Assembly (NCBI GenBank): GCA_964500895.1
Contig: CAZCQP010000003.1
Location: 35,044 to 99,043, forward strand
DNA from: an uncultured Eubacteriales bacterium
GTDB taxonomy: Bacteria > Bacillota > Clostridia > Lachnospirales > JAISER01
DNA: 64,000 nucleotides
Reading direction: 5' to 3'
Numbering within the stretch: the first letter of the stretch is position 1; every line of letters begins with the position of its first letter. The notes beneath the pieces were generated by a model. The model did not search any database and was not told the DNA's origin. It saw only the letters and a program-made list of their open reading frames with translations. A program made the translations under genes and the position numbers. Of this stretch, positions 43,945 to 61,305 are shown one piece after another.

Positions 43945-44868
43945 ATGGTAAACATACTCATGGCCACCTATAATGGTGAAAAATATTTAAAGGCGCAGCT
44001 GGATTCTCTTTTAAGCCAAACATTTGATGCATGGCAGTTGTTTGCCTGCGACGATGGCTCCAGTGACCACACATACGCCATATTACAGGATTATGCCAGC
44101 CGGGACGGGCGCATTCACATCAGTTGCAATGCCCAAAACACCGGAGGCGCTAAATATAACTTTTTTGGGCTAATGCAAAGACATAAGTCCGGCTATGTCA
44201 TGCTGTGTGACCAGGACGATGTATGGCTGCCTGAGAAAATTGAACGAACATTGCAAAAAATGCATGAAATGGAGGCGCAATTTAGCAGTGATACCCCCAT
44301 TCTTGTGCACACGGATTTAAAAGTGACAGATGGGACCCTTCATATTTTGTCCCATTCTTATGAGCACTACACCAAAGCCAATTTTGACAATACGGCTTTG
44401 TGCCATTTACTGACGGAAAACATTGCCGTGGGTTGTACAGTGATGTATAACCAGGCATTGGCGGCTTTTGTTGGTGAAATGCCTTCTTTTTTCATTATGC
44501 ATGATTTTTGGATGGCACAAACAGCGGCCATCTTTGGAAAAGTGGGGCATGTGGATGCCCCCACCATTTTATACCGGCAGCACGCCAATAACAGCAATGG
44601 GGCAAAGAACTTCCGCAATCTGTTTGCTGTGATACGGCTTGCACTTAACATTGATTTTCTTAAAACAAACCTTTCCAACACCTATTTGCAGGCAAATAGT
44701 TTGCTTCAAGCATACGAAGGCCGGTTGCCGGAAGCTGAAAAAGCCCTCTTGTTGGCTTATTGCAGCATTCCTTCATTACGTAAATGGAACCGCTGGCTAA
44801 TGCTGATTCGTCTGAAAACCTTAAAGCATAGCTTCCTTCGGAAGGTTGGCCACTTTTTGTTGGTGTAA
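43945..44868 (+). CDS. Family 2 glycosyltransferase (rhamnosyltransferase-like)
   Basis: ILMATYNGEKYLKAQLDSLLSQT...CDDGSSD...DQDD motifs. Confidence 0.8.
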   Translation: MVNILMATYNGEKYLKAQLDSLLSQTFDAWQLFACDDGSSDHTYAILQDYASRDGRIHISCNAQNTGGAKYNFFGLMQRHKSGYVMLCDQDDVWLPEKIERTLQKMHEMEAQFSSDTPILVHTDLKVTDGTLHILSHSYEHYTKANFDNTALCHLLTENIAVGCTVMYNQALAAFVGEMPSFFIMHDFWMAQTAAIFGKVGHVDAPTILYRQHANNSNGAKNFRNLFAVIRLALNIDFLKTNLSNTYLQANSLLQAYEGRLPEAEKALLLAYCSIPSLRKWNRWLMLIRLKTLKHSFLRKVGHFLLV

Positions 44869-44993
44869 CGCATATTCTGCGCTTGGCTTGTAACAAATGT
44901 TGGACAAGGTAGAACAATTGCTGTAAAATAGGTTATTATAAAAAAGCAAAGGTTATTTTGGCTTTTTACTTGTATAGACATGGAGGAATACAT

Positions 44994-45872
44994 ATGAAAG
45001 GTATTATTTTAGCCGGTGGCGCAGGAACACGATTATTTCCTTCTACATTAGCTGTATCAAAGCAAATGTTGACCATTTACGACAAACCTATGATTTATTA
45101 TCCTTTATCTACCTTGATGCTTTCCGGCATTCGGGAGGTACTTATTATCTCTACCCCTAGAGATTTGCCTATGTTTGAGGCCTTGTTAGGAGACGGCAAA
45201 AAGCTGGGCATGTCTTTTCAGTATATTGTGCAAGAAGCGCCCAAAGGGCTGGCGGAAGCTTTTATTTTGGGAGAAGACTTTATCGGAAAAGACAATGTCA
45301 CCCTGGTATTGGGGGATAATATTTTTTATGGTTACGGTTTTTCGGCAAGGTTGATGCAAACCGTGCAGCAAGTGGAAACAAACGAGGGCGCTGTTATTTT
45401 TGGGTACCATGTGTCTAACCCCAGTGATTTTGGTGTGGTGGACTTTGACCGGGAAGGTAACGTATTGTCTATTGAAGAGAAGCCCAAAGCGCCAAAATCT
45501 AACTATGCAGTGCCCGGTCTTTATTTTTATGACAATCAGGTGGTGGACATTGCAAAAGGGGTAACCCCTTCTGCTCGAGGTGAACTGGAAATAACGGCAG
45601 TGAACAATGCTTATTTAGCCATGACTAAGCTAAAAGTAGAGCTGTTTGGCCGTGGGATGGCTTGGCTGGACACTGGGACACACCGGGCAATGCTGGAAGC
45701 CGCCAACTTTATTGAAACGGTGCAAACCAGGCAAGGGCTTTATGTGGCATGTATTGAAGAAATTGCGTACCGGCAGGGGTTTATCAATGCCTCCGCACTT
45801 TACGGGCTGGGTGAAGCGCTTAAATATACCGAATACGGGCAATATATTATGGAGTTGGCAAACGGTGTGTAA
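44994..45872 (+). CDS. rfbA: Glucose-1-phosphate thymidylyltransferase
   Basis: [48 protein letters not shown] lies before the ATG at 44994. Confidence 0.93.
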
Positions 45873-45914
45873 GGCAGCAATAATTAAAAAATATTTTTTT
45901 ATGTTTCTTGCTTT

Positions 45915-45945
45915 TTAACCTCACCAGTTATGCTGGTGAGGTTAA
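45915..45945 (+). terminator. Rho-independent terminator after rfbA
   Basis: TTAACCTCACCAG / CTGGTGAGGTTAA 13-bp stem. Confidence 0.6.
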
Positions 45946-46235
45946 AAAGGTTAATAGCATCAGCGCTGACTAATAATAAATGCACTTTGTATAAAAAGCT
46001 ACTGCTTCTACTTCAATGTAATTAGTGCAAGATTTGATGTTTTACGTTCCTTATATAGGGGCGGAACCAGCATAACTGCCAACTATAGTCAACAAAGAAG
46101 CAGACCGTAAGAACAGTTTGAAAATTGGTGAATGCTGTCTTATATTTGAATAAAATGAGTTGTCAACGGTGGCAACTTCCGAAGGATCTTCCAACGTGTA
46201 GAAATGTTTCTTAATTGTATTTGGTTTGAACGCTT

Positions 46236-47022
46236 TTAGAACCTGTTTGCTATCTATCAAACCACAATGGCTTGATGTATAATTATATGAAAAAATTATA
46301 CATAGGAGCGAAAAATGAGAGCTGCATATCCAAGCGACGTAACCCGTGCGCAGTTTGAAGGCATACGTCATTATTTTGATACTAACAAGAAAAAATCAAC
46401 ATTTACGACATATTCTGTGCAGTTCTTTATGTGTTGCGGGAAGGTTGTAGGTGGCGTTCTCTACCACATGACTATCCCAAATGGAAGAATTGTTATAAAC
46501 ATTATAGGATATGAGATGCAAAAGGGCCTGATGGTAAAAGCCATCTTGGACAAAGCCCTTGAAAACCGCTCCCATTTGGTCTGTTACATTTGCGGTAGTC
46601 CGTCTATGGCGTGAGGAAGCTCCAGGGTATCAACCCCGATATGAATTTTAACCCCGGACACTTTTTCCCACCGTCATAGCCTTTTTCTTCGGCGGTGAAA
46701 GCGCTCTTTACACTCTTGGAATCAGTAATACTCATGGTGGTTTTGGGTTTCTGCCTTTGACAATGCGTTATGACATAACTAATTATGAAACCTTCTCCCC
46801 AAACCTTGCCAACATTATTAAAGTGCTTTGTGATGGTGATTTTACGGGCAAACCATTTGCTGATGCTATTATGAACTAATCAAAGCTGAAGTGGAAATAG
46901 CAAAATGCAAAGAACTTCACACATTTTTAGTTATCCCTATGCTTTGAGTAGTCGAGAGAACTTTCATTGCTTTTAAAGATGGTAAACAGGTTCTTGCAAC
47001 GTTATTGAATACAGGGTTCTTA
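46236..47022 (+). mobile_element. Decayed IS5-like insertion sequence (frameshifted, internally deleted transposase; central ~225 bp inverted)
   Basis: + strand: MRAAYPSDVTRAQFEGIR, LPHDYPKWKNCYKHYRIW. - strand at 46545..46772: TTMSITDSKSVKSAFTAEEKGYDGGKK, VDTLELPHA. + strand again: VLCDGDFTGKPFADAI, NAKNFTHF, SLLLK..RY-stop. Right terminus TTATTGAATACAGGGTTCTTA. Confidence 0.7.
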
Positions 47023-47252
47023 TAATATTCTGTAAAAGCGCTCAACACCTCAAAGCTCTATAAAGACAACGATTTTCAAAAATTATGCATGACTGCCTGC
47101 TTAATTACCATAGTATACTGGTACTTCTAGCTGGCGGGAGTGAAAGTGATTCCGTGGTTTTCAAGTAAATGTTGAATTTTTTAGCAAAATATAGTACAAT
47201 AAGAAATATGTTTAAATCACAGCATTTAATTTGACTTGTTTTAATTTTTATA

Positions 47253-48047
47253 TTGAAGGAAGGTTATACTACGAAAACTTATGTTGATACGTTTTTAAGA
47301 TTCAGAATATTACTTTACGACTTAGTTTTGAGAGATATTAAAGTAAAGTATCGCCGTTCTGTTTTGGGTGTTGTGTGGAGTGTTTTGAATCCTTTACTGA
47401 TGATGCTTGTTATGACAGCGGTCTTTTCGGCCGTTTTTAAAGTTAGTATACCTAACTTTCAGGGGTATTTTCTTACAGGTTTTGTCCTTTTTAATTTTTA
47501 TGGTGAGGCAACAAGTGGCGCAATGAGTTCAGTATTGGGATCGGCATCCCTTATAAAAAAGGTTTACATTCCTAAATATCTTTTTGCTGTAGAAAAAGTT
47601 TTGTTTGCTTTTATTAACTTTGCATTCGCACTTGCTGCTGTGGCTATCGTTTTGATTGCAACTAAGGTTCCTATTAAAATTACGGTTTTACTTGCTCCGA
47701 TTCCGGTTTTATATACTTTTATTTTTGCATTGGGAATTGGTCTTATACTCGCAGTCTGTGCTGTGTTTTTTAGAGATACATTACACTTATATACTGTTTT
47801 ATTGACAGCACTCAATTATTTTACCCCTATTTTTTATCCTGAAGATATTATACCGGAGAAGATACAGTGGTTATATTATTGCAATCCTCTGGTTCATTTT
47901 GTCAAATATTTTCGAAGTTGCGTGATTCATGGAGAAATTCCTGATTTGAAGACAAATTTGCTTTGTGCGGCATTTGCGTTTGGAGCGCTGATATTGGGCT
48001 TAATACTTTTTAAGAAAAAGCAAGACAGCTTTGTTCTTTATGTGTGA
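47253..48047 (+). CDS. Polysaccharide ABC exporter permease (Wzm/RgpC/TagG type)
   Basis: ABC-2 type permease. N-terminus LVLRDIKVKYRRSVLGVVWSVLNPLLMM. Confidence 0.85.
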   Translation: MKEGYTTKTYVDTFLRFRILLYDLVLRDIKVKYRRSVLGVVWSVLNPLLMMLVMTAVFSAVFKVSIPNFQGYFLTGFVLFNFYGEATSGAMSSVLGSASLIKKVYIPKYLFAVEKVLFAFINFAFALAAVAIVLIATKVPIKITVLLAPIPVLYTFIFALGIGLILAVCAVFFRDTLHLYTVLLTALNYFTPIFYPEDIIPEKIQWLYYCNPLVHFVKYFRSCVIHGEIPDLKTNLLCAAFAFGALILGLILFKKKQDSFVLYV

Positions 48048-48060
48048 GAAGGTGTTACGA

Positions 48061-48792
48061 ATGAACATTATAGAAGTACAGAACGTTTCAATGGTTTTTA
48101 ATCTTCTAAGAGAGCCAGTGTTTTCATTGAAAGAATATGTCATCAGCTTTTTAAAGGGACGTGTTCAGGTGGAAGAGTTTGTTGCGCTGTCTAATGTTAG
48201 TTTCGAAATAAAAAAGGGTGAAGTCTTTGGTATTGTGGGTGATAATGGAAGCGGAAAATCAACACTATTAAAGCTAATTGCAGGCGTTTATAAAGCGACA
48301 GATGGTAAGGTGAGTGTCTATGGTAAGGTTGCGCCATTAATTGAGCTTGGCGCAGGCTTTGACATGGACCTAACTGCCAGAGAAAATATTTTTTTAAATG
48401 GACTAATTCTTGGGTATACTAGAGAGTATATAATTGGGAAGTTTGATGAAATTGTTGCTTTTTCAGAAATAGGAGATTTTATTGATGTGCCTTTGAAAAA
48501 TTATTCATCGGGAATGGTTTCGCGTATTGCCTTTTCCATTGCCACTTGTACACAGCCGGATATATTAATTGCAGATGAGATTCTGTCGGTTGGAGATTTT
48601 GAATTTCAGGCTAAGTGCGAAAATCGAATTATGAACATGATGGCTAAAGGTACGACCGTAATTTTTGTTTCCCATTCCATTGATCAGGTTAAACGAATCT
48701 GTAAGAGAGCTGCCTGGCTAGATCATGGGAAGATTGTGACAATCGGTGATGTTGATTTTGTTTGTGATGCATATATTAATAAAATATATTAA
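48061..48792 (+). CDS. Polysaccharide ABC exporter ATP-binding protein (Wzt/RgpD/TagH type, no C-terminal glycan-binding extension)
   Basis: Walker A GDNGSGKST, signature YSSGM, Walker B ILIADE. Confidence 0.85.
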   Translation: MNIIEVQNVSMVFNLLREPVFSLKEYVISFLKGRVQVEEFVALSNVSFEIKKGEVFGIVGDNGSGKSTLLKLIAGVYKATDGKVSVYGKVAPLIELGAGFDMDLTARENIFLNGLILGYTREYIIGKFDEIVAFSEIGDFIDVPLKNYSSGMVSRIAFSIATCTQPDILIADEILSVGDFEFQAKCENRIMNMMAKGTTVIFVSHSIDQVKRICKRAAWLDHGKIVTIGDVDFVCDAYINKIY

Positions 48793-48810
48793 TTAAAGAG
48801 AGGTGTTTTT

Positions 48811-49644
48811 GTGACTAAAGTTTTGGTTACGGGTGCAGGCGGCTATATAGGAAGGCATATCATTTCCAAATTGCTCGACAAAGGTGCGGATGTTTCAGCA
48901 GTGGATATTGCCTTTAGTGAAATTGATTCAAGGATTAAGACAGTCATTGAGGCGGATATTTTCGATGGAGATCCACAAATATTTAAACGTTTGGGAAATC
49001 CCAACGTTTGTCTACATATGGCTTGGAAGGACGGATTTGTGCATCATTCGGATGAGCATATGTTAAATCTTTCAAAACATTATGAATTTATTAATAACAT
49101 GCTTAAAGGAGGTCTTTCACATATTGCGGTGATGGGCAGTATGCACGAGGTAGGGTATCATGAGGGTGCTATTGATGAGAACACGCCATGTAATCCTATC
49201 AGTATGTATGGTATTTCAAAGGATTCGTTAAGAAGGGCTTTGATAAGAAAGCTAGACGGCACAGATGTAGTTTGGCAGTGGATTAGGGCTTTTTATATTT
49301 ACGGTGATGACGAAAAAAATAATTCCATTTTTACAAAGCTTGTTCAAGCAGAAAAAGAAGGTAAATTAGAATTTCCTTTTACAACAGGTAAGAATAAATA
49401 TGATTTTATAAGTGTGACTGAATTGGCCGATCAAATCTCGGCTTGTGTTTTGCAAGATAAAATTACAGGAATTATCAACTGTTGTAGTGGAAGGCCAGTG
49501 TCGCTAGCTGAGCAAGTTGAGAAATTTATAGCTCAAAAGGGACTTAAAATTAGGCTTAAATATGGGGCGTTTCCAGATAGAACTTATGATTCTCCTGTTG
49601 TGTTTGGAGATTCGTTAAAGATCACCAAAATTATGAGAGGTTGA
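48811..49644 (+). CDS. NAD-dependent epimerase/dehydratase family protein (GTG start)
   Basis: VLVTGAGGYIGRH Rossmann motif and YGISK catalytic motif. Confidence 0.75.
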   Translation: MTKVLVTGAGGYIGRHIISKLLDKGADVSAVDIAFSEIDSRIKTVIEADIFDGDPQIFKRLGNPNVCLHMAWKDGFVHHSDEHMLNLSKHYEFINNMLKGGLSHIAVMGSMHEVGYHEGAIDENTPCNPISMYGISKDSLRRALIRKLDGTDVVWQWIRAFYIYGDDEKNNSIFTKLVQAEKEGKLEFPFTTGKNKYDFISVTELADQISACVLQDKITGIINCCSGRPVSLAEQVEKFIAQKGLKIRLKYGAFPDRTYDSPVVFGDSLKITKIMRG

Positions 49645-49648
49645 TTTT

Positions 49649-51436
49649 GTGAAAATAGCTTTTTCAGGCATCTTTGATATTGCAAATTATGGGGATCATC
49701 TTTTTCCGCTAGTTTTTGAAAAGAAACTTATGGATATGGGAGTAGATTGTGAGCTGTTTTTATTTTCGTGTTTTGAATGCAAGCAAGCATTGGGTATGAA
49801 CAAACAAGTATATGCCTTGAAAGATTTAGAAGAAAAGCATCTAGAGATTGGATTTGATGCCATTGTTGTTGCTGGAGGCTGGATAGCCCATTTTATATTA
49901 ATATCTCAAAAGCTTTCAAGGCTTGATCGAGAATTTATAGATTATTCTATTTTTGAAGCATGGATAACCCCCTCTCTCGTTGCCTTAAAGCATAACATTA
50001 AATTGATTTGGAATGCTCCTGATACCTGGTATGAATTTTCTTCAATATTTCAGGAGTTAATGAGGGGTTTGTGCTCTAGTGTTGATTATATTAGCGTAAG
50101 GAGTAAATTTTCTGTTGACGTTTTATCGAAGTCAGGTATTGATCCAGATAGATTGAATATATCACTAGATACAGCGTTTTTATTGCCTGAGGTTTTTGGT
50201 AAGGATGAGTTAATTCCTATTCGAAAAGACATTATCCCATTTGGTGATAAATATATTGTATATCATGCAAATAGAAATTTGCCAGAATCTGAAATTAACA
50301 CAGTAGTTGAAATTTTAGATTTTCTTGTTGAGCAATCATATCAAGTTGTTCTGTTACCATTAGCATATACGCATGATGATGAAAGTATATTAAGAAAAAT
50401 TAATGAAGTAGGTAATGGTAAATATTATTTGTTTGATAGAGAGTTAACGTTAAGAGAACAAATTAGTGTATTAGCATGTTGTGAGATGTATATTGGAGTG
50501 AGCTTTCATGGGGCTGTCACGGCATTTGCATATAATATTCCTGCGATTGCTTTTGATTCTCACCAGCAAAAGAAGAATTATGAAATATTTGAGCGTTTTA
50601 ATGCCGCACAATATTTTGTAACTGACGGACAAATGTTATCGGAGGTTGTAAAGTCGGCATTGTTACACTACAATGTAGACTTTAAATATGTACAATTTCA
50701 GATTTCACAAATTAATAAGCATTTTGAAAACATCTGTAAGTGTCTTACTTCTCCCATAAAAGATAAGGGAATCTCTGAATTTGCTAGTGCATTTAATAAT
50801 GCTATAAAACATCTGCATAAAAGTGACATACAAGCCAAAGACGAGCATATAAGGATGATGAGTGAAGCCTTAGGGGCGAAGGACAAGCATATAAACATGT
50901 TGAATGAAGCTATTGAGTTGAAGGATGGGCATATAGGGAGGTTAGATGAAGCCTTAGCGGCTAGGGATGAGCATATGAGGATATTGAATGAAGCCCTAGG
51001 GTATAAAGATGAGCACATAGGGATGCTGGATGAAGCCATAAGGTATAAGGATGGACATATAAGGGTGCTAGATGAAGCCATAGTAACTAAGGATGGGCAT
51101 ATAAGGATGCTAGACGAGGCCATGGTGGCTAAGGATGGGCATATAAGGATGCTAGACGAGGCCATGGTGGCTAAGGATGGGCATATAAAGATGCTAGATG
51201 AAGCCATAGTGGCTAAGGATGAGCACATTAGAATGTTAGATGAAGAAATGATGGTAAAGGATAAGCGATTAGAAGACTTCGAGAAAAACAATGCTTTTCA
51301 GATTGAAAGTATGCTTCAATTGGAGAAAGAAGTATCACAGTATAAACATATGATTTTTGCCATGGAAAATTCAAAATCGTGGAAGATTACAAGCCTTTTA
51401 CGTAAAGTAATGGCTTTATTTCGAGGGGGAAAATAA
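49649..51436 (+). CDS. Polysaccharide pyruvyl transferase fused to a C-terminal 14-residue-repeat coiled coil (GTG start)
   Basis: N-terminal ~390 aa resemble the pyruvyl transferase family (GIFDIANYGDHLFP...). The C-terminus has ten KD(G/E)HI(R/K)MLDEA(I/M)VA units followed by further coiled coil. Confidence 0.7.
   Translation: MKIAFSGIFDIANYGDHLFPLVFEKKLMDMGVDCELFLFSCFECKQALGMNKQVYALKDLEEKHLEIGFDAIVVAGGWIAHFILISQKLSRLDREFIDYSIFEAWITPSLVALKHNIKLIWNAPDTWYEFSSIFQELMRGLCSSVDYISVRSKFSVDVLSKSGIDPDRLNISLDTAFLLPEVFGKDELIPIRKDIIPFGDKYIVYHANRNLPESEINTVVEILDFLVEQSYQVVLLPLAYTHDDESILRKINEVGNGKYYLFDRELTLREQISVLACCEMYIGVSFHGAVTAFAYNIPAIAFDSHQQKKNYEIFERFNAAQYFVTDGQMLSEVVKSALLHYNVDFKYVQFQISQINKHFENICKCLTSPIKDKGISEFASAFNNAIKHLHKSDIQAKDEHIRMMSEALGAKDKHINMLNEAIELKDGHIGRLDEALAARDEHMRILNEALGYKDEHIGMLDEAIRYKDGHIRVLDEAIVTKDGHIRMLDEAMVAKDGHIRMLDEAMVAKDGHIKMLDEAIVAKDEHIRMLDEEMMVKDKRLEDFEKNNAFQIESMLQLEKEVSQYKHMIFAMENSKSWKITSLLRKVMALFRGGK
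50837..51256 (+). repeat. Ten tandem 42-bp coding repeats (two adjacent units identical)
   Basis: AAGGATGGGCATATAAGGATGCTAGACGAGGCCATGGTGGCT occurs twice in succession (51099..51182). The other units are diverged copies in the same phase. Confidence 0.9.
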
Positions 51437-51438
51437 CT

Positions 51439-53364
51439 ATGAGGTTTATAACAGATAAAACTGTTAAAAGATTAGCCATATACTTTTTTTACGATAGTAA
51501 TGGCATTGCCGATGAATATAACTTTTATTTACTTAACAATCTTAAAGAGCATGTAAACGAGCTCTTTGTTGTTTGTAATGGCATTTTATCGCCTGAGAGT
51601 AGAAAAAGGTTTTCTGATGTATCAGACCATCTTTTAGTAAGAGAAAATAAGGGGCTTGATGTTTGGGCATATAAAGAAGCTATGGCTTTCTATGGTTGGA
51701 AGAAGTTGTCAGAGTTTGACGAGGTTATACTCCTTAATTTCACCATATTTGGTCCACTATATCCATTTAAAGAAATGTTTGATACAATGGATGCAAAAGA
51801 TTTAGATTTTTGGGGTATTACAGTATGGCATACTATTCCATTTGACCCATTTGGAACAGTTAAGTATGGGTATATTCCTAAACACATCCAATCTCACTTT
51901 ATGGCATACCGTAAAACATTGGTTTCTAGCTATGAATTTCAGCAATACTGGGATAATATACCTGAAATCAATACATATGCAGAATCAATAGGCTTTCATG
52001 AAGCTATTTTCACAAAAGATTTTGAGGATAAAGGTTATAAATGGGATGCCTATGTTAATACAGATGAGTTAGAAAAACATACGGCTGGACCGATTAATTA
52101 TTATGTAAAATATCTTATTGAAAAGAAACGATGCCCTATTATTAAACGCCGTTCCTTTTTTCATCATATGGATGATGTACTGAACAATACCTGTGGTCAA
52201 GAGACAGTTGAAGCATTTAAATATATAGAGAATAACCTTGACTATGATGTTAACTTGATTTGGGATAATCTTCTTAGGACACAACATCAAAGTGATATAA
52301 AAAATCGGATGCATCTTAATTATATAATACCAACATCTTTTCTTAAATATTCAAATAGTTCACAAAAAAAGATGAAGGTTGCACTTATTGTGCATATTTA
52401 TTATAAAGATTTAATTAATTATTGCTTTAACTATGCAAAATCTATGCCGTCGTACGCTGACATATATGTAACAACTCAATCAGAAGATATGAGACAAGAA
52501 ATATTATCTATTTTTTCACAAATCGAGTGTAATAAACTTGAGGTTGTGTTAGTTGATAACAGAGGGCGTGATGTAAGCGCATTATTGATAGGCTGTAAGG
52601 AATTTATTATGGATTATGACCTTGTATGTTTTGCACATGATAAAAAAACAAAACATTTAGAACCACTGTCTGTGGGTGAATCGTTTTCATACACATGTTT
52701 TGAGAATGTACTTTATAATGAACCTTTTGTTGAAAATATTATCAATACTTTTTTAGATAATCCAAGATTGGGTTTATTAACCCCACCACCTCCTAATCAT
52801 GCGCAGTTTTTTACCACGATGGGATTTGTTTGGTCTATCAATTTTGAGGCCTGTAAAGATTTAGCAAAAAAGCTAAAGATTGATGTTCCTATGAGCTTGG
52901 AAAAGGACCCTATTGCACCGATAGGATCTATGTTTTGGTTTAGACCTGCTGCGCTGAAGCAGCTATTTGATTATAATTGGAAGTATGACGATTTTCCTGA
53001 GGAGCCACACAGCTTAGTTGATGGAACTATCTCTAATGCAATAGAAAGAATACATCCATTCGTTGCCCAACATAATGGATATTATCCTGCATGGGTATTT
53101 TCACAAAACTTTTCGTCAATTCAATTTACCAATTTATACTATATGTTTAGTGAAATTAACAAAGCTACAATGGCTAAATTGGGATTAGGGCCATATTTTG
53201 CAACAAAGATGCGCATTATGAACGACAATAATCTTGACAACTATAATCCTGAATTACAAATTACTTTTAAGAAATGGTTTTATACATTTTTAAAAAGGGT
53301 TTTACCTAAACCTGTATCTAATAGATTAATAGCTATAAAAAACAAGTATAAAAGCAGAGCATAA
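51439..53364 (+). CDS. Rhamnan synthesis protein F (RgpF)-like rhamnosyltransferase, copy 1
   Basis: LAIYFFYDSNGIADEY..., RGRDVSALL, FAHDKKT, PPPPNH and IERIHPF are characteristic of RgpF-family proteins. Confidence 0.8.
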   Translation: MRFITDKTVKRLAIYFFYDSNGIADEYNFYLLNNLKEHVNELFVVCNGILSPESRKRFSDVSDHLLVRENKGLDVWAYKEAMAFYGWKKLSEFDEVILLNFTIFGPLYPFKEMFDTMDAKDLDFWGITVWHTIPFDPFGTVKYGYIPKHIQSHFMAYRKTLVSSYEFQQYWDNIPEINTYAESIGFHEAIFTKDFEDKGYKWDAYVNTDELEKHTAGPINYYVKYLIEKKRCPIIKRRSFFHHMDDVLNNTCGQETVEAFKYIENNLDYDVNLIWDNLLRTQHQSDIKNRMHLNYIIPTSFLKYSNSSQKKMKVALIVHIYYKDLINYCFNYAKSMPSYADIYVTTQSEDMRQEILSIFSQIECNKLEVVLVDNRGRDVSALLIGCKEFIMDYDLVCFAHDKKTKHLEPLSVGESFSYTCFENVLYNEPFVENIINTFLDNPRLGLLTPPPPNHAQFFTTMGFVWSINFEACKDLAKKLKIDVPMSLEKDPIAPIGSMFWFRPAALKQLFDYNWKYDDFPEEPHSLVDGTISNAIERIHPFVAQHNGYYPAWVFSQNFSSIQFTNLYYMFSEINKATMAKLGLGPYFATKMRIMNDNNLDNYNPELQITFKKWFYTFLKRVLPKPVSNRLIAIKNKYKSRA

Positions 53365-53392
53365 TTATGTAAAATTGTTCGGAGGTTTTGAT

Positions 53393-55324
53393 ATGCATAA
53401 ACAAGCCTTAAAGCGGCTTGCAGTTTACTACTTTTATGATGCAGATGGTATTGCTGATGATTATGTTCTTTATTGCCTAAGTGAGCTCAAAAAAGATATC
53501 AACAATCTTCTGGTTATCTGCTATGGTAAGCTAAGTATTCCTAGTCGCCAGAAGTTGCAGCTGATTGCTGATTATGTCATTGTCAGCAGTGATGTAAACT
53601 ATAATATTCTAGCCTATAAAGAAGCGTTTAAGTTTTTTGGCTCACTAAAGCTTGCTGAATACGATGAAATTATTTTATTAGATTACACATTTTTTGGACC
53701 GCTCTACCCTTTTGAGGAAATGTTTAATAAAATGGATCGCTTAACGTTAGACTTTTGGGGGATAGCCACAGGTCACTATATCCCGTATGATCCCTATGGA
53801 ACAATAAAATATGGATATGTTCCTAAACACCTCCAAGATAATTTTATTGTTCTTCGCAAGTCATTGCTTCAAAGTGTAGAGTTTGGAAAATACTGGGAAA
53901 GTATTCCTGAAATATATTCAGATCAGCAATCAAAAGCATATTATGGTGTGGTTTTTACGAAGGAATTTGAAGACAAGGGATTTACATGGGATTCTTATAT
54001 AAACTCAGATGAGCTTGAAAAACATACACATGACCCATTAATTTATAGTGCTAAGTATCTTGTTGAAAAGAAACGTTGTCCCATTATTAAGCGGCTTTCG
54101 TTCTTTAACCATACGGGTGAAGCTATTAGTAATTCGTGTGGCCAGGAAGGACTTGAGGTGTATGAATACATTAGGGATAATCTTGACTATGATGTTAATA
54201 TGATATGGGATAACATTCTTCGGGTACAAAATCAGGCTGATATCAAGAATTGTATGCACTTGAATTATATACTTTCGTCTGTTTGCTGCAAGGAAAATAA
54301 GTCTATCAAGGACAAAGTTGCTCTAGTCATGCACATTTATTATGAGGACCTAATTGAAAGTTGTTATGAATACGCACAATCTATGCCTGAGTACGCTGAT
54401 ATATATGTAACCACGCATTGTGAGGCAATGAAGAGTCAGATATTAACTGTTTTTTCTAAAATGAGGTGTAATAAGCTTCAAGTAATTTTGGTTGATAACC
54501 GAGGACGCGATGTCAGTGCACTTCTTGTTGGGTGCAAAGGCTTTATTAAAGATTATGATATCGTATGTTTTGCCCACGACAAAAAAACAAAACAGGTGGA
54601 ACCTTATTCAATTGGTGAATCATTTGCCTATAAGTGTTTTGAAAATGTGTTATATAATGATAATTTTGTTAACAATGTGGTAGACACATTTTTATCTAAT
54701 CCGCGGTTAGGACTTTTAACACCGCCCCCTCCAAACCATTCCCCATTTTATATTACGTTGGGTTATGGTTGGAGTATAAATTATGAAATTAGCAAAAAGT
54801 TAGCGGATCAATTAAATGTTAAAGTACCTATAGATTGCAATAAGGATCCTATAGCGCCATTGGGAACAATGTTTTGGTTTAGAACCAAAGCGTTGGAATC
54901 ACTGTTTAAAGAAGACTGGGAATATGAAGATTTTCCTAAAGAACCAAATGCAAATGATGGTACTTTACTTCATGCATTTGAGAGATTATACCCATTTATT
55001 GCCCAAGATCATGGTTATTATCCTGCTTGGTTAATGGTTGATCATTACGCAAGGGTGGAGCATACGAACTTAGTGTATATGTTGAGCAGGCTTAATTCGC
55101 ATTTGTTCAAAGTTTATGGACTTAACTCTTATGCTGGTCTACTTGCTATGCTGGAGGCTTCAAAAGAACAAGACTGCCAAATGCCAGTCGCCATGAATCA
55201 AGATATCTTACTTAGACAGTTGTTAAAAAATAAGTTAAAAGCATTTTTACCACGGCCTTTATTCGTGCTCCTAATAAAATTTAAAAGAATGATATTTGGG
55301 CCGCATGGTGTTAAAGAAATATAA
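53393..55324 (+). CDS. RgpF-like rhamnosyltransferase, copy 2 (tandem paralog)
   Basis: Collinear with copy 1 over its full length (LAVYYFYDADGIADDY, RGRDVSALL, FAHDKKT, PPPPNH). RBS GGAGG lies before the ATG at 53393. Confidence 0.8.
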   Translation: MHKQALKRLAVYYFYDADGIADDYVLYCLSELKKDINNLLVICYGKLSIPSRQKLQLIADYVIVSSDVNYNILAYKEAFKFFGSLKLAEYDEIILLDYTFFGPLYPFEEMFNKMDRLTLDFWGIATGHYIPYDPYGTIKYGYVPKHLQDNFIVLRKSLLQSVEFGKYWESIPEIYSDQQSKAYYGVVFTKEFEDKGFTWDSYINSDELEKHTHDPLIYSAKYLVEKKRCPIIKRLSFFNHTGEAISNSCGQEGLEVYEYIRDNLDYDVNMIWDNILRVQNQADIKNCMHLNYILSSVCCKENKSIKDKVALVMHIYYEDLIESCYEYAQSMPEYADIYVTTHCEAMKSQILTVFSKMRCNKLQVILVDNRGRDVSALLVGCKGFIKDYDIVCFAHDKKTKQVEPYSIGESFAYKCFENVLYNDNFVNNVVDTFLSNPRLGLLTPPPPNHSPFYITLGYGWSINYEISKKLADQLNVKVPIDCNKDPIAPLGTMFWFRTKALESLFKEDWEYEDFPKEPNANDGTLLHAFERLYPFIAQDHGYYPAWLMVDHYARVEHTNLVYMLSRLNSHLFKVYGLNSYAGLLAMLEASKEQDCQMPVAMNQDILLRQLLKNKLKAFLPRPLFVLLIKFKRMIFGPHGVKEI

Positions 55325-55361
55325 CTTAAATAATAGATAATGGGATTAATGAGGTGTTGGT

Positions 55362-56762
55362 GTGGTCTTCTCGTCGACTATTTTTGTTTTTTTATTTCTG
55401 CCTGTTGTTTTAGGTGGTTATTACCTTATACGACATGAGTTTAGAAATACCTTCTTGCTTGTGTCTTCACTTCTATTTTATGCCTGGGGTGAACCTAAAT
55501 TTGTATTTATAATGATTGCTTCCATACTCGTTAATTATTGTATGGGAATTGCAATTGATGTAAGCCGTGATTGGCGCATTAGTATAAAACGATTTATTTT
55601 AATAGTTGCTATTTTATTAAATTTAGGATTACTGTTTTATTTTAAATATTTTGACTTTGCAGTAGATATTTTTAACGGCCTTTTTAAATCAAATATATCA
55701 CTAAGACATATTGCGCTTCCTATTGGTATAAGCTTTTTTACATTCCAAGGAATGTCTTACATTTTGGATTTATATATGGGCAAGGTGGAGGTGCAAAATA
55801 ACCCTTTAAATATTGCACTATATATAGCCTTGTTTCCTCAGCTAATTGCGGGGCCTATTGTTCGATATATAGATGTAAATGAGCAAATTGAAAGCAGAAC
55901 GTGTACTAGTGGTAAGTTTAATGCAGGTATTAAAAGGTTTATTATGGGCCTTGCCAAAAAGATTATATTGGCTAATTCTGTCGCAACAATTGCAGATAGC
56001 GCTTTTTCAACTCAGGTTTCTGAGTTATCAAGTATTATGTCTTGGCTAGGTATTATTTGCTATACATTTCAGATTTATTTTGATTTTTGCGGCTATTCGG
56101 ATATGGCAATAGGGCTTGGACAAATATTTGGCTTTGAATTTTTAGAAAATTTTAATTATCCATATACTTCTAAAAATATCACGGAGTTTTGGAGGAGATG
56201 GCACATTTCTCTATCATCTTGGTTTAGGGATTATGTTTACATACCTCTTGGCGGTAATAGGACAGGAAATGTGTATTTTAATCTTTTAACTGTTTTTTTT
56301 GTTACAGGATTATGGCATGGTGCATCTTGGAATTTTATTATTTGGGGCTTATGGCACGGTTTTTTTCTCATTGTAGAAAGAATATTGCGCCGAAAAGATG
56401 CTGATTTTAAGACGCTTCATTTGCTTAAAAGGGTTTATACTCTATTAGTTGTGATAATTGGTTGGGTAATGTTTAGAGCGCCAGATATCAATTATGGATT
56501 ATTATATATAAAATCCATGTTTAACTATTCATTTAATTCATTGCAAAATGACACAGCTTGCCTTTATTTTAAAGATAACTTTATAATCCTTATGATATGT
56601 GCTGTATTATGTACCCCATTAATAAAAATTTTAAAAGATAAATTTTCGGATTACAAGGCCTGTACGTTATTTGAGATTATTATTTATATGGTACTGTTTA
56701 TTATAAGCATATCTTATATGGTAAACAGTTCATATGATCCATTTATTTATTTTAATTTTTAA
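55362..56762 (+). CDS. MBOAT-family O-acyltransferase (AlgI/DltB-like, GTG start)
   Basis: Multi-pass protein with FWRRWHISLSSWFRDYVYIPLGGNR and the conserved His in WHGASWNF. Confidence 0.85.
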   Translation: MVFSSTIFVFLFLPVVLGGYYLIRHEFRNTFLLVSSLLFYAWGEPKFVFIMIASILVNYCMGIAIDVSRDWRISIKRFILIVAILLNLGLLFYFKYFDFAVDIFNGLFKSNISLRHIALPIGISFFTFQGMSYILDLYMGKVEVQNNPLNIALYIALFPQLIAGPIVRYIDVNEQIESRTCTSGKFNAGIKRFIMGLAKKIILANSVATIADSAFSTQVSELSSIMSWLGIICYTFQIYFDFCGYSDMAIGLGQIFGFEFLENFNYPYTSKNITEFWRRWHISLSSWFRDYVYIPLGGNRTGNVYFNLLTVFFVTGLWHGASWNFIIWGLWHGFFLIVERILRRKDADFKTLHLLKRVYTLLVVIIGWVMFRAPDINYGLLYIKSMFNYSFNSLQNDTACLYFKDNFIILMICAVLCTPLIKILKDKFSDYKACTLFEIIIYMVLFIISISYMVNSSYDPFIYFNF

Positions 56763-56774
56763 GGAGGTGTTTTA

Positions 56775-58280
56775 ATGAAGAGTAAAGGCTCTGATATTAT
56801 ATTGATAGGATTTTTTATAATAAGTATTTTTGTACTTTCAATATTATCATTAAAAACAACAGGTAAAGAAATATTAAACAAGCTAGAAACTACATCAATT
56901 CAGACTATCCAAAATGATTTGCAAGATATAGGGGAAATTTACAGAAATGGTTTTTTTCGTCGAAAAGATTTTATAAATGCTTATGGTGCTGTTCAGCTTA
57001 TGCTTAATAAAAGAATGATTGGAGACAAGGAATTTTATAAGGACAATAATGGATTTATGCAAGCATTTTATTCAAATGATGATTGGAGTAATTTTGAAGA
57101 CGAAGTAATTAATTTAAAGAAAATTACTGATCAAAAAGGAGTTCCTTTGCTATATGTGCAAATTCCCTCTAGGGTTATTCCAGGGTATACTAAACTCCCA
57201 GCAGGATTTGTTAATAATAAAAATATTGCTATGGATAAATTACTATCAGGTCTTTCTCTTGCTGATATAAATGTTTTGGATTACAGATCGTATGTGAACA
57301 AAGATTCGGTTGATTCAAGTAATGTTTTTTTAAAAACAGATTTTCATTTGACAACTGAGGCCGAACTTGATGTTCTAAAAAAACTAGTGCATGAATTAGA
57401 GTCTAAATATGGATTAACATTTGATAATAAGGATGTAATAATGGATATGCAAAATTATCATTTGGATACAAGAAAATTTTTAGGTAATTATGCGTTTTCA
57501 TCAGGGAAATATTTTGCAGGTTTAGATTATTTTAATATGTATATTCCCAAATTCGACACTAGCTTTCTGCTTACAGATGAATATGGGAATAAAATAAAGG
57601 ATGGAAGTTTTCAAGATGTCTTAATGAATGGTTATCAATATACTACGCAATCTCAAAATGAATCTGAATTAATATATTGGATTACCAATTATATGCAGTA
57701 TACGAGACCATGTTATCGTTTTGAAAACCGGATGGTAGATAAAAATAATATTCTCATTGCCATGGATAGTATGGGATTTAGAACCGCTGCGTATCTTTCT
57801 TTGATGTGTAATGGTTTAACTGTAGTTGATCCTAGATTTGAAGGAAATAAGGGTTATTTAATTAGAGAAATAAATAACAATGACTATGATGTGGTCATTT
57901 TATTACAGGCTAAGTCACTTGTAGATAGTCCATTAGTTCCCAAAAAGCTAGGGGCAGAAATTATTTATGATGATACATTAGGTATCGTCAAACGGAATGA
58001 AAAGTACACATTTCGTATTTCTGTTAGGAATACGGGTGATCGCATATGGAATGCAAAGGATATGATTAAACTCTGCATATTCCAAGATGGTGTAGATTAT
58101 GGCTATAGAATTTCTTTGCCAGAAGGTGTTGAGGTGAAACCTGGAGAAGACTATACGTTTGAATTGAATAATTTCGTTGCCCCCCCCACTAATAGCACCT
58201 ATTTGGAATATCAAATGGTTGAGGAAGGTATTGACTGGTTTGGCGAAAAGAAACGGGTTGATATTCAAGTTAATGATTAG
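56775..58280 (+). CDS. AlgJ/AlgX-like (DHHW-type) acyl-transfer partner protein with C-terminal Ig/NBR1-like domain
   Basis: N-terminal anchor and a TDFHLT motif matching the D-x-H pattern of AlgJ-type proteins. The beta-rich C-terminal ~110 aa follow. Directly downstream of the MBOAT gene. Confidence 0.6.
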   Translation: MKSKGSDIILIGFFIISIFVLSILSLKTTGKEILNKLETTSIQTIQNDLQDIGEIYRNGFFRRKDFINAYGAVQLMLNKRMIGDKEFYKDNNGFMQAFYSNDDWSNFEDEVINLKKITDQKGVPLLYVQIPSRVIPGYTKLPAGFVNNKNIAMDKLLSGLSLADINVLDYRSYVNKDSVDSSNVFLKTDFHLTTEAELDVLKKLVHELESKYGLTFDNKDVIMDMQNYHLDTRKFLGNYAFSSGKYFAGLDYFNMYIPKFDTSFLLTDEYGNKIKDGSFQDVLMNGYQYTTQSQNESELIYWITNYMQYTRPCYRFENRMVDKNNILIAMDSMGFRTAAYLSLMCNGLTVVDPRFEGNKGYLIREINNNDYDVVILLQAKSLVDSPLVPKKLGAEIIYDDTLGIVKRNEKYTFRISVRNTGDRIWNAKDMIKLCIFQDGVDYGYRISLPEGVEVKPGEDYTFELNNFVAPPTNSTYLEYQMVEEGIDWFGEKKRVDIQVND

Positions 58281-58363
58281 CAGGGTTTAAAGAATTGCTA
58301 TTTATACTTTCTTTTATATTAAAATTATGATAAAATTATAAAAAACAAATTGGAGTTGAGACG

Positions 58364-58930
58364 GTGTCAAAATTTAAAATTACACCCACAAAAATTAAGG
58401 ATTTGATTGTTATAGAATCGACTGTTTTTGGCGATAACCGTGGTTATTTTATGGAAACTTATAATCAGAGAGCGTACTCAGAAATTGGGCTAAACATGTG
58501 TTTTGTGCAGGACAACCAGTCGAAGTCAAAACAAGGCGTCTTACGGGGGCTTCATTTTCAAAAGGAGAAGCCCCAGGGTAAACTTGTGCGTGTAATTTCT
58601 GGTAAGGTTTATGATGTTGCTCTTGATATTCGTCCAAATAGTCCTACTTTTGGACAATGGGAGGGTATATTGCTTTCAGCTGAAAATAAGCTGCAGTTTT
58701 ATGTTCCGGAAGGATTTGCACATGGTTTCTTAGTTGTAAGCGAAACCGCTGAGTTTGTCTACAAATGTACGCAGCTTTACGACCCAACTGATGAAGGTGG
58801 GATTATGTTTAACGACCCTGATCTAAATATCGATTGGCAAAAATATTTTAATGGGGACCCTATACTATCAGATAAAGATAAGAAAAACATGAGTTTAAAA
58901 GAATATGTTAGTGCCTTAAAAAAGGTATAA
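58364..58930 (+). CDS. rfbC: dTDP-4-dehydrorhamnose 3,5-epimerase (GTG start)
   Basis: FGDNRGYFMETYN, VQDNQSKS..GVLRGLHFQ, VPEGFAHGF. Confidence 0.92.
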   Translation: MSKFKITPTKIKDLIVIESTVFGDNRGYFMETYNQRAYSEIGLNMCFVQDNQSKSKQGVLRGLHFQKEKPQGKLVRVISGKVYDVALDIRPNSPTFGQWEGILLSAENKLQFYVPEGFAHGFLVVSETAEFVYKCTQLYDPTDEGGIMFNDPDLNIDWQKYFNGDPILSDKDKKNMSLKEYVSALKKV

Positions 58931-59340
58931 TTTTAGCCGGTGGTTCAGGAACAAGACTTTAAGGTTTTGAATATTTATGATCTTCTTGACGTGATACTAT
59001 TAGAAGATTTGCTGGATGATTGTCCATAGTTGGGACGTGATGCCACAAAAAGATGCAAGGTACTATGCGGACTATCGAATGCAATTTATTTTAGTTAGTG
59101 GTGTTATTGATATAGCAATGGAAGCCTGTGCCTTGAAATAAAATGCTTTACAGATATCGTTTTAGTACTATATACAGAAGAACAGAATCTCTTAAAAGGC
59201 TACTGGATTTGGATATCACGTTACTAACTGGTAAGATTATGATTATGGTGTGATTGAGTTTGATAAAGACTGTAACGTGCTTTGAACAGGGGAAGCCATA
59301 AGGTTCCTTGAAGTGAGGTATGGTAAATCAGGCAAAGCTT
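58922..59340 (+). pseudogene. rfbA: Decayed second copy of glucose-1-phosphate thymidylyltransferase
   Basis: [13 protein letters not shown]-stop at 58922..58963 with no start codon. Further on, GFGYHVTN..DYGVIEFDKDCNVL-stop matches the middle of RmlA. Multiple stops and deletions. Confidence 0.75.
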
Positions 59341-59458
59341 TTGCTCATGTTTTTGAGAAATTGCATGTTATAGTCCATGGATGACAAAAGAGATGTTTTT
59401 AACATATGCTAGCATGTTGTGCAACGTTGAGTTTGCAGTTTGAATAAAGGAGTATTGC

Positions 59459-60292
59459 ATGAAAATTCTAATAACGGGTTCGAAGGGGCAATTAGGACAG
59501 GAATTACTGTCATTAACTAACGAAACGATTATTGATACTGATATAGAACTTAATATCGTGGACCTAGATACATTATATAGATTTGTGAAGGACAAGCATT
59601 TTGATGCTATTATTAATTGTGCTGCGTATACAAATGTTGATGGCTGTGAAGATAATATTGATGATGCTTACCATATAAATGCTGTAGGTGCTAGAAACCT
59701 TGCTTTAATTGCAGAACAAAAAAAGGCAAAACTGTTTCATATTTCTACTGATTACGTTTTTGATGGATTGTCGAAGGAACCGTATAGGGAGTATGATGTC
59801 CCAAATCCACAAAGTGTGTATGGTAAATCTAAGCTCCTGGGAGAACATTTTGTTCGTGATTTTTGCGGCAAATATTTTATAATTCGCACTGCGTGGCTGT
59901 ACTCAAAGATAAATAAAAATTTTGTTCAAACAATGATTAGTTTGGGACAAAGCAAAAATGAAATTAATGTCGTAAATGATCAAAGGGGAAATCCTACAAA
60001 TGTAAAGGATTTGGCAAACCATATTCTAAGCCTTTTAAGAACTGATTATTATGGAATATATCATATAACCGGCAAGGGTGAGTGTAGTTGGTATGACTTT
60101 GCCAAACGGATAATGGAGTTAAGTGGTAGTAAATGTAGGGTTAATCCCATTACTTCGAAAGAATATCCCCAAAAGGCAAAACGTCCAAAGTATTCATCAC
60201 TTGATAATTTAGCATTAAGAGCAAGTATTGGAGATCATATGCGAGATTGGGATGTAGCACTTGAAGACTATTTTAAGGAGATGGTAAAATGA
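59459..60292 (+). CDS. rfbD: dTDP-4-dehydrorhamnose reductase
   Basis: MKILITGSKGQLG, INCAAYTNVD, STDYVFDG, YGKSKLLGE. Confidence 0.92.
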   Translation: MKILITGSKGQLGQELLSLTNETIIDTDIELNIVDLDTLYRFVKDKHFDAIINCAAYTNVDGCEDNIDDAYHINAVGARNLALIAEQKKAKLFHISTDYVFDGLSKEPYREYDVPNPQSVYGKSKLLGEHFVRDFCGKYFIIRTAWLYSKINKNFVQTMISLGQSKNEINVVNDQRGNPTNVKDLANHILSLLRTDYYGIYHITGKGECSWYDFAKRIMELSGSKCRVNPITSKEYPQKAKRPKYSSLDNLALRASIGDHMRDWDVALEDYFKEMVK

Positions 60293-61305
60293 AAACTTAT
60301 CTGGTAACAGGAGGCGCTGGGTTCATAGGCAGCAATTTTATATTGTATATGCTTGAAAAATATCCAGAAATAAAAATTATTAACGTAGATTGTTTAACCT
60401 ATGCTGGCAATATTGACAATCTGAAGACAGTGGAAAATGATCCTCGCTATTGTTTTGTAAAGGCAGATATTTGTGACAGTGAAGCCATAAAAAATATTTT
60501 TAATGAAGAAATCAATTATGTGGTTAACTTTGCGGCTGAAAGTCATGTTGACCGCTCCATAGAAACACCCGGTGTTTTTGCAAATACTAACATTATCGGT
60601 ACACTTAATCTACTTAACCATGCGAAACATGCTTGGCAAATAAGAGATGATACGTATAAAACAGGCGTAAAATTTCTTCAGGTTTCAACAGATGAGGTTT
60701 ATGGTTCATTGGGTTCAACAGGATTGTTTACGGAAGATACACCTCTTGATCCCCATAGCCCATATTCAGCAAGTAAGGCATCTGCTGATATGTTTGTAAA
60801 GGCATATTTTGACACCTACAAAATGCCTGTTAACATTACTCGATGTAGTAACAACTATGGTGAGTTTCAGTTTCCTGAAAAATTGATTCCTCTTGTAATT
60901 AATAACCTTTTACAGTATAGAAAGGTACCTATTTACGGGGATGGAAAACAGGTGCGGGATTGGCTTTATGTTAAGGATCACTGCAAGGCAATTGATATGG
61001 TTATAAATGGTGGGGTGCTTGGAGAGGTTTATAATGTGGGTGGCTCTAATGAAAGGGAAAATATCATAATTGTTAAAACTATTATTAAATATCTTAATCA
61101 AAACTACGACAGTAGAATATCTGAGGATTTAATCGGCTATGTAACAGACAGAAAGGGTCATGATCGTCGATATGGTATCGATGCAACTAAAATTAAAAAC
61201 GAACTTGGCTGGACACCAGATACTATGTTTGATGAAGGCATTATCAATACCATCAAATGGTATTTGGATAATAGAGACTGGGTTAAGAAGTTATTGAAAG
61301 AATAA
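60289..61305 (+). CDS. rfbB: dTDP-glucose 4,6-dehydratase
   Basis: LVTGGAGFIGSNF, AAESHVDRS, STDEVYG, YSASKASAD. Confidence 0.93.
   Translation: MKTYLVTGGAGFIGSNFILYMLEKYPEIKIINVDCLTYAGNIDNLKTVENDPRYCFVKADICDSEAIKNIFNEEINYVVNFAAESHVDRSIETPGVFANTNIIGTLNLLNHAKHAWQIRDDTYKTGVKFLQVSTDEVYGSLGSTGLFTEDTPLDPHSPYSASKASADMFVKAYFDTYKMPVNITRCSNNYGEFQFPEKLIPLVINNLLQYRKVPIYGDGKQVRDWLYVKDHCKAIDMVINGGVLGEVYNVGGSNERENIIIVKTIIKYLNQNYDSRISEDLIGYVTDRKGHDRRYGIDATKIKNELGWTPDTMFDEGIINTIKWYLDNRDWVKKLLKE

Follow-up and report, generated by a model that had tools for sequence, protein, structure and literature searches.

A pyruvyl transferase with a repeat-built coiled-coil stalk as a candidate chain terminator in a rhamnose-type glycan locus of a gut Firmicute

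Can a bacterium measure the length of a wall polysaccharide with a stalked capping enzyme, even if its glycan exporter does not read the cap? This question is raised by a gene in a stretch of 64,000 nucleotides (from here: the window) on contig CAZCQP010000003.1, which belongs to the assembly GCA_964500895.1 of an uncultured Eubacteriales bacterium. The gene encodes a pyruvyl-transferase/coiled-coil protein (from here: PvT-CC), in which a pyruvyl transferase head is followed by a long tail built from 14-residue repeats. Judged from sequence comparisons, PvT-CC is probably (at roughly 0.6) the chain terminator of an ABC-transporter-dependent (ABC, ATP-binding cassette) 6-deoxyhexose (rhamnose-type) wall polymer of a gut spore-forming Firmicute, with the chain length set by its coil.

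Rhamnose-rich wall polysaccharides are phage receptors, contribute to cell shape and serve as vaccine antigens. For the setting of glycan length there is a coiled-coil ruler model, which was derived from a small number of O antigens of Gram-negative bacteria whose caps are methyl, phosphate or Kdo (3-deoxy-D-manno-oct-2-ulosonic acid). In WbdD and WbbB, coiled-coil terminators act as rulers and the length of the coil sets the length of the chain (PMC11231755). Terminal pyruvate added by WbbZ stops polymerisation in vitro (PMC10629545).

Pyruvyl transferase head and repeat-built stalk

The gene and the parts of its product are as follows (aa, amino acid position; AF2, AlphaFold2).
49649..51436, + strand: PvT-CC gene, 595 aa; open reading frame with GTG start and TAA stop
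49685..50563, + strand: polysaccharide pyruvyl transferase domain, aa 13-305; PF04230 (PS_pyruv_trans)
50774..51370, + strand: predicted helical stalk, aa 376-574; AF2 model and heptad phase scan
50837..51256, + strand: ten in-phase 42-bp (14-residue, two-heptad) tandem units, aa 397-536; in-frame reading and Tandem Repeats Finder
51087..51188, + strand: stretch of exact periodicity in which 60 nt, from 51087 on, recur unchanged at offset 42; units 7 and 8 lie in it
51371..51433, + strand: C-terminal conserved motif SKSWKITSLLRKVMALFRGGK, the last 21 residues; AF2 helix aa 576-592, containing SKSWKIT

The N-terminus of PvT-CC, KIAFSGVFD, aligns with those of its homologues, and the ribosome-binding site GAGAGG lies within the last codons of the upstream gene, which encodes a short-chain dehydrogenase/reductase (SDR). 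PF04230 matches with 97.4 bits (cut-off 25.3; E=1.8e-27) over profile positions 1-279 of 280, in agreement with an earlier reading of this DNA made from its letters and open reading frames (from here: the sequence-only reading), which had staked its proposal on the N-terminal domain being a pyruvyl transferase on profile search. The motifs N13-Y-G15-D16 (NxGD), R151-S-K-F-S155 (Rxxx(S/T)) and H287 are each either invariant or conserved to at least 90% among 51 homologues, and these are the motifs conserved across glycan pyruvyl transferases (PMC10629545). In the AF2 model (mean predicted local distance difference test score, pLDDT, 87.4) the whole head, aa 1-367, is a two-domain alpha/beta structure of GT-B-like fold with a pLDDT above 90. 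Its best Foldseek matches are UDP-GlcNAc 2-epimerases, likewise GT-B-like, at E about 1e-10, and this class also dominates the structural neighbours of the WbbZ crystal structure (PMC10629545). By these sequence criteria the head is a bona fide pyruvyl transferase, for which ketal transfer dependent on phosphoenolpyruvate (PEP) is predicted.

Matches to more narrowly defined relatives were weak. The CsaB equivalog TIGR03609 reached 44 bits against a cut-off of 213.1, so that CsaB, to which the sequence-only reading had compared the protein, is not a close counterpart; matches to WcaK profiles were far below cut-off. Searches of PDB sequences with the full protein, the head, the tail and the family profile returned generic coiled coils only and no pyruvyl transferase.

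The tail of PvT-CC is helical in the AF2 model, with helices at aa 376-479, 484-574 and 576-592. A phase scan found the heptad register unbroken from about aa 391 to 572, with six of the eight a/d positions hydrophobic per 28-residue window, and the power at period 3.5 in the stalk was 9.2 times the background. Each 14-residue unit contributes the core positions I(a)-L(d)-I(a)-K(d). Model and phase scan together describe one long helix of about 180-200 residues in constant heptad register, which bears out the further heptad-like sequence beyond the repeats in the sequence-only reading and would suit a coiled coil. With a coiled-coil rise of roughly 0.15 nm per residue, the approximately 180 residues of a fully extended coiled coil would by arithmetic span about 27 nm, and one unit about 2 nm. 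When searched alone, the coil (aa 376-595) had no match at E<=1e-3. The core motif [H/Y]-I-x-x-L-[D/E] (positions g-a-b-c-d-e) recurs in aa 397-536 of the window protein and in many homologue tails. It resembles R-h-x-x-h-E, a motif for trimerisation in short coiled coils, and on this resemblance the stalk may be a trimer, as in WbdD.

The stalk is followed by the conserved C-terminal helix, which has a net charge of +5 and a hydrophobic moment of 0.37-0.40 and is a putative docking element for the membrane or the polymerase. Against a set of 5.8 billion proteins, a profile built on the SWKIT tail (the final ~40-50 residues) gave just 15 candidates, and none of them scored.

Tandem Repeats Finder reported the array with period 42, 9.7 copies and 78% matches at 50840..51245; its additional rows, of periods 84 and 126, refer to this array too. 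The ten in-phase units named in the sequence-only reading are present. Units 6-9 fit the consensus given there, in the form KDGHI(R/K)(M/V)LDEA(I/M)V(A/T), and units 1-5 and 10 are more diverged, with 25-36 of 42 nt in common. Against a protein self-similarity segment score of 43 for the tail, shuffled tails scored at most 5. Unit 7 (51089-51130) and unit 8 (51131-51172) are identical in DNA sequence, as are the segments 51099-51140 and 51141-51182, whose identity had been pointed out before. Most other unit pairs have 25-38 of 42 nt in common, hence the array appears mostly old, with one recent duplication, marked by the identical units 7 and 8. Slippage, put forward beside recombination in the sequence-only reading as a source of variation, is better called occasional unequal recombination, given eight old and diverged units out of ten; the single recent duplication fits this better than a fast switch.

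Reads from the source, a gut metagenome, agree with the assembled array. The Logan unitigs end exactly at the identical units, and in run X1 the depth is 8.3 on the repeat unitig, 4.3 on the loop unitig and 5.1-5.6 on the flanks, which fits the assembled copy number, at only about 5x coverage. Four metagenomes of one study contained the same array sequence without joints or variants, in contigs at 3-6x depth that are uninformative on rare repeat variants.

Two further features coincide with the repeats. The NCBIfam entry 'Cbp1 family collagen-binding glycoprotein adhesin' matches three stretches of aa 379-441 at a score under its threshold (42.8 bits, cut-off 90), which probably reflects common coiled-coil repeats. 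An antisense open reading frame at 50698..51291 (- strand, 197 aa), all inside the array, was rejected as a gene, as it arises from the repeats read in reverse, where they contain no stop codon.

Stalk length and fusions among the relatives

A word-indexed search yielded the 51 homologues mentioned above, with 30-44% identity, PF04230 in all of them and variable tail lengths; an exhaustive profile search yielded 4861 cluster representatives with E<=1e-3, of which 566 reached E<=1e-30. The closest protein in the databases searched has 44% identity to PvT-CC. A metagenome scan for close relatives found none, and an exact-sequence look-up for contigs carrying PvT-CC gave no match.

Stalk length differs widely within this family. 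The distance between the catalytic His and the Trp of the C-terminal motif ranges from 133 to 399 residues and is 291 in the window protein, which ranks 8th in tail length among 144 stand-alone forms. At least ten members have their own, unrelated tandem repeats, with periods of 7, 14, 21, 28 or 35 and one exception of period 24. Near-identical proteins within 90%-identity clusters were compared as length-variant pairs. P0030 and P0192 are 100% identical except for one 21-residue stalk unit, P0018 and P0203 are 99.8% identical except for one 14-residue stalk unit, and P0023 and P0204 are 98.8% identical except for 7 residues inside a stalk repeat. The 7 aa by which P0019 and P0247 differ were not counted as stalk variation, since they come from the call of the N-terminal start codon. 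Clusters without strong repeats are length-invariant. In nature, then, the stalks of this family gain and lose units in register-preserving steps, as read from their sequences. All observed stalk indels keep the heptad phase, which argues for selection on an intact rod. The built-in variation proposed for the array has its parallel in these heptad steps of the family; for the window gene itself none was seen in the four metagenomes of the one study.

The second line of evidence comes from fusion proteins. Among the best 150 family representatives, 17 are 1025-1747 aa long, and all 14 long members scanned consist of an N-terminal PS_pyruv_trans domain, a spacer and then one to three glycosyltransferase (GT) modules. 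The module sets are two GT2; WbsX with the C-terminal half of RgpF; GT4 with GT2; or a single GT2. In these fusions the pyruvyl-transferase head is always placed at the far end of the spacer, away from the polymerase modules, an arrangement that has been described as diagnostic of terminators (PMC11231755).

A motif links the fused and the stand-alone forms. S-x-S-W-[KR]-[IL]-T was found in 32 of 166 members, 12-26 residues before the C-terminus in stand-alone forms and at the junction between spacer and GT module in fused forms. Since the motif marks the fusion junctions and a polymerase is encoded by the next gene, the window protein looks like a split version of the fusions. From the stop codon of PvT-CC to the ATG of this RgpF gene, which has its own GAGGGGGA ribosome-binding site, there are only 2 nt. 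In two of three fusion loci examined, the fusion gene directly follows those of the transporter permease Wzm and a short form of the transporter ATPase Wzt.

Side observations concern the architecture of other members. An extra domain of ~120 residues lies between head and coil (about aa 400-530), with the signature 'Y/FxDxGxGFSE...RIDPxE', in P0123, P0128, P0132, P0139, P0144, P0150, P0156 and P0170. The window protein is without it. This domain might be a carbohydrate-binding module in cis, as modelled in Klebsiella O7 ORF6. In the cluster of P0038 (Agathobacter rectalis), many of the 15 members listed have 240 aa and not 446 aa (40 of 970 read), which suggests a common truncation or a split gene call.

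The glycan locus and its counterparts

PvT-CC lies in a 17-kb single-strand cluster (43945-61305) with the gene order GT2, RmlA, transposase remnant, Wzm, Wzt, SDR, PvT-CC, two RgpF, MBOAT, AlgX-like, RmlC, RmlD, RmlB. These and other features of the window are listed here (IS, insertion sequence).
43945..44868, + strand: GT2 glycosyltransferase, first in the cluster
44958..45872, + strand: RmlA
45900-47200: transposase remnant; frameshifted IS-type fragments, e.g. 'LREGCRWRSLPHDYPKWKNCYKHY', in the 1.4-kb gap between rmlA and wzm, with no intact open reading frame
47253..48047, + strand: Wzm-type ABC-2 permease; PF01061
48031..48792, + strand: Wzt-type ATPase, 253 aa; ABC_tran domain only
48811..49644, + strand: extended SDR, 277 aa, nucleotide-sugar epimerase/reductase type; PF01370
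51439..53364, + strand: RgpF-family glycosyltransferase 1, putative polymerase; PF05045, 660 bits
53375..55324, + strand: RgpF-family glycosyltransferase 2; PF05045, 605 bits
55362..58280, + strand: MBOAT acyltransferase and AlgX/SGNH-like partner, a probable glycan O-acetylation pair; kept in L001 and L005 (see below)
58364..61305, + strand: RmlC, RmlD and RmlB; complete dTDP-L-rhamnose synthesis
62106-63734: large serine recombinase, after the cluster
21719-23287, 33932-35167 and 37000-39231: sporulation-type genes for SipL (with LysM), YqfD and a 743-aa amidase (Cu_amine_oxidN1 and AMIN)

The genes around PvT-CC recur with its homologues. SDR, PvT-CC, RgpF and Wzm/Wzt occur together in loci of Lachnospiraceae, Bifidobacterium, Arcanobacterium, Faecalibacillus and Hydromonas, and a neighbourhood of Wzm/Wzt plus a polymerising GT was found in at least ten loci of other taxa. 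An RgpF gene is present in 11 of 14 homologous loci; an SDR with 51-66% identity is present in 11 homologous loci, from Firmicutes, Actinobacteria and a betaproteobacterium. The locus of an uncultured Lachnospiraceae (L001) is syntenic with the window, and its 615-aa homologue has a 42-bp array of its own (5.7 copies) with units K-x-KD-x-YI-x-SLE and the end MEQSISWKITKILRKGK.

The extra SDR bears on the identity of the glycan. Its relatives in the PDB are sugar-nucleotide epimerases and 4-reductases, and in Bifidobacterium it adjoins rml genes. The SDR may, from its sequence, supply a second 6-deoxyhexose, which could be the capped sugar; 6-deoxy-talose is one candidate. The 'rhamnan' of the sequence-only reading is an assumption; the co-conserved SDR suggests that a second 6-deoxyhexose may be involved.

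Regarding the transporter, the sequence-only reading was right that the exporter ATPase has no glycan-cap-binding extension. Among neighbouring Wzt proteins of the family, the Wzt_C domain (cut-off 30.4) was detected in Arcanobacterium bovis (L004) with 35.3 bits and in bacterium 1XD42-54 (L005) with 57.9 bits; in Bifidobacterium stellenboschense (L009) it reached 20.1 bits, under the cut-off. A short Wzt is encoded in five other loci, the window included.

The G+C content of the glycan cluster is 0.30-0.38, and that of the upstream (left) region 0.45-0.50. This low G+C content and the adjoining serine recombinase suggest a horizontally exchanged or hypervariable locus. By SipL, YqfD and the amidase, the host is a Firmicute of the Clostridia type that forms endospores. 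Those window proteins that the collection contains are all singletons at 90% identity, which points to an unsampled lineage. The idea that the pyruvylated polymer is a ligand for SLH anchors was rejected, as the window proteins that were scanned contain no SLH domain and the CsaB equivalog score is far below its cut-off.

A homologue of 502 aa is found in Enterobacter roggenkampii and E. quasiroggenkampii (L032, L033; 10001-11509) as a single inserted gene, with a length invariant across many genomes.

Proposed role, rival explanations and known systems

As a chain terminator with a ruler, PvT-CC would work in the following way. Docked through its C-terminal motif, either at the membrane or at the RgpF polymerase, the protein would keep its pyruvyl-transferase head at a distance of up to about 27 nm by means of an oligomeric coil. 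The head would reach the non-reducing end only once the growing undecaprenyl-linked chain is long enough. With PEP as the donor it would convert the vicinal diol of the terminal 6-deoxyhexose into a pyruvate ketal, by which the hydroxyl needed for the next glycosyl transfer would be taken away and elongation would stop. Wzm/Wzt would then export the capped chain. As the window Wzt is without a cap-binding module, export is probably not gated by the cap; a ruler, if real, would then act alone, and uncapped chains might be exported as well. Duplication or loss of repeat units would alter the stalk in whole-heptad steps and would thereby shift the length distribution of the glycan.

The terminator and ruler were already proposed in the sequence-only reading. 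The GT fusions, the two Wzt_C neighbours and the stalk differences of 21, 14 and 7 residues lend this comparative support, while capping and length control are what we infer for PvT-CC.

Several points weigh against this role. WbbZ, the one characterised terminal pyruvyl transferase, is without chain-length control in vivo (PMC10629545, PMC11231755), and the family of PvT-CC is known from its sequences alone. The window Wzt lacks the module that defines classical capped systems. One of the fusion proteins has no transporter gene nearby, and the homologue in Enterobacter stands as an orphan between fieF and cpxP, without a nearby polysaccharide cluster. Solved pyruvyl transferases were absent from the top 50 Foldseek matches of PvT-CC. 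One in four core positions per unit is Lys, and Gly occupies an f position, which makes for a non-ideal coiled coil. The AF2 monomer model breaks the stalk helix at aa 480-483, with low confidence, and a stalk folded back as a hairpin of about half the length would be compatible with this model; such a break is typically the outcome of predicting a coiled coil as a monomer.

These points can be turned into other explanations. PvT-CC could be a decorating enzyme on a scaffold, which places ketals along the chain or, as CsaB does, on a lipid-linked primer, with a coil that only oligomerises the enzyme and anchors it in the assembly complex, and with a coil length that is not read out. A 2-linked rhamnose retains a free 3,4-diol, and its internal pyruvylation at O3/O4 is chemically possible. 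CsaB-type enzymes work on lipid-linked repeat units (PMC6801904). A Wzt that does not read caps would suit such a role, as would the Enterobacter orphan, by which the protein can occur apart from a dedicated polymerase gene. However, a decorating enzyme would hardly account for a head that in the fusions is always placed as in terminators, for Wzt_C on some of the neighbouring transporters, or for the quick evolution of stalk length in heptad multiples, and we consider this explanation unlikely. Alternatively, PvT-CC could resemble WbbZ and cap some chains with pyruvate, as an epitope or ligand, while length results from the balance of polymerase and transporter and the repeats are a neutral filler of the tether, prone to recombination. 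In the case of WbbZ, only some of the O1 chains become capped, loss or overexpression of the enzyme barely alters the length pattern, and its transporter is without a cap-binding module, to which the short Wzt of the window would correspond. WbbZ has no coiled coil, though, and neutral filler sits poorly with a long register-preserving stalk that is kept across phyla, whether split or fused, and in which every observed indel preserves the heptad phase; we regard a cap without a ruler as distinctly improbable.

The chemistry of the head was likewise considered. A diverged enzyme of the PF04230 fold might transfer another group or use a donor other than PEP. In all 161 family members checked, a Ser stands two residues before the conserved His (S-[FLMY]-H; aa 285-287 in the window protein). 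Pvg1p Arg337 was reported to contact the PEP phosphate (PMC10629545). If the conserved His of Pvg1p is His339, this arginine would be the counterpart of the family Ser. The lack of a sequence match to any solved pyruvyl transferase would also fit another chemistry. Nevertheless, the Pfam match spans the full profile far over its cut-off and the three class-wide motifs are intact, by which a different group or donor becomes very improbable indeed.

A bolder version of the terminator role would make the array a tunable ruler: unequal recombination of 14-residue (about 2 nm) units would reset the modal length of a pyruvate-capped 6-deoxyhexose wall polymer stepwise, in gut Firmicutes and Actinobacteria lineages and without a cap-reading transporter. 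We offer this tentatively and think it rather unlikely. If true, it would mean a standing variation in wall-glycan length that is selectable by phages or host immunity.

Coiled-coil terminators and terminal pyruvylation are each already known. Their combination, a pyruvyl transferase with a coiled coil, was not found in full-text literature searches, but may be listed in the terminator census of Mann et al. 2019 (Glycobiology 29:822), which lay outside these; nor were fused pyruvyl transferase-coil-polymerase proteins or single-unit length alleles found in the searchable literature. PvT-CC would thus follow a known design, with a capping chemistry that is apparently undescribed. A stalked pyruvyl transferase family would bring this new chemistry to the ruler model and would extend the model to monoderm gut commensals (Lachnospiraceae, Bifidobacterium, Faecalibacillus). 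Relatives that are one repeat unit apart would be natural 'length mutants', the ruler idea would become directly testable where no transporter reads the cap, and the family would suggest modular parts to glycoengineer polymers of defined length.

Among known systems, CsaB of Bacillus and Paenibacillus is of the same Pfam family as PvT-CC and acts on a wall polymer of Gram-positive bacteria, as PvT-CC would; in B. anthracis the pyruvylation is terminal. It differs in that it has no coil and modifies ManNAc for the anchoring of SLH proteins, in a B. anthracis pathway proposed to be Wzx/Wzy-dependent (PMC6801904). WbbZ of Klebsiella pneumoniae O1b belongs to the PF04230 class, too, and adds a PEP-dependent ketal to the non-reducing terminal sugar of an ABC-transporter-dependent glycan, with a transporter that, like the one of the window, has no cap-binding module (PMC10629545). 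In contrast to PvT-CC, it has 329 aa, no coiled coil and no role in chain length and is unlinked to its main locus; PDB sequence searches detected no similarity between the two proteins.

The layout of terminator, coiled coil and polymerase has been established for WbbB of Klebsiella O12, described for ORF6 of Klebsiella O7 and also occurs in Klebsiella O4 (PMC11231755). WbbB and O7 ORF6 join head, coiled coil and GT modules in one polypeptide, which is the layout of the 14 long family members (PMC11231755). Their heads are a Kdo transferase or a methyltransferase-kinase, whereas PvT-CC, with the polymerase (RgpF) in a gene of its own that follows, is the split form.

The nearest counterpart in architecture is WbdD (E. 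coli O9a / Klebsiella O3, O5), which like PvT-CC is a stand-alone protein with an N-terminal catalytic head; its extended coiled coil (PMC11231755) would correspond to the predicted helical stalk of PvT-CC. In both systems the polymerase is separate, a multi-GT protein in that of WbdD, and the pathway depends on Wzm/Wzt (PMC11231755). The C-terminal region of WbdD is membrane-associated and recruits the polymerase (PMC11231755); its putative counterpart in PvT-CC is the basic SxSW(K/R)IT helix. No sequence similarity was detected between the two stalks. The head of WbdD is a kinase/methyltransferase and that of PvT-CC a pyruvyl transferase, the Wzt of WbdD has a cap-binding module and that of the window has none, and WbdD serves a Gram-negative O antigen, whereas PvT-CC would serve the wall polymer of a Firmicute. 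By analogy, the best-supported reading of PvT-CC would be that of a WbdD-like split terminator with a pyruvyl-transferase head.

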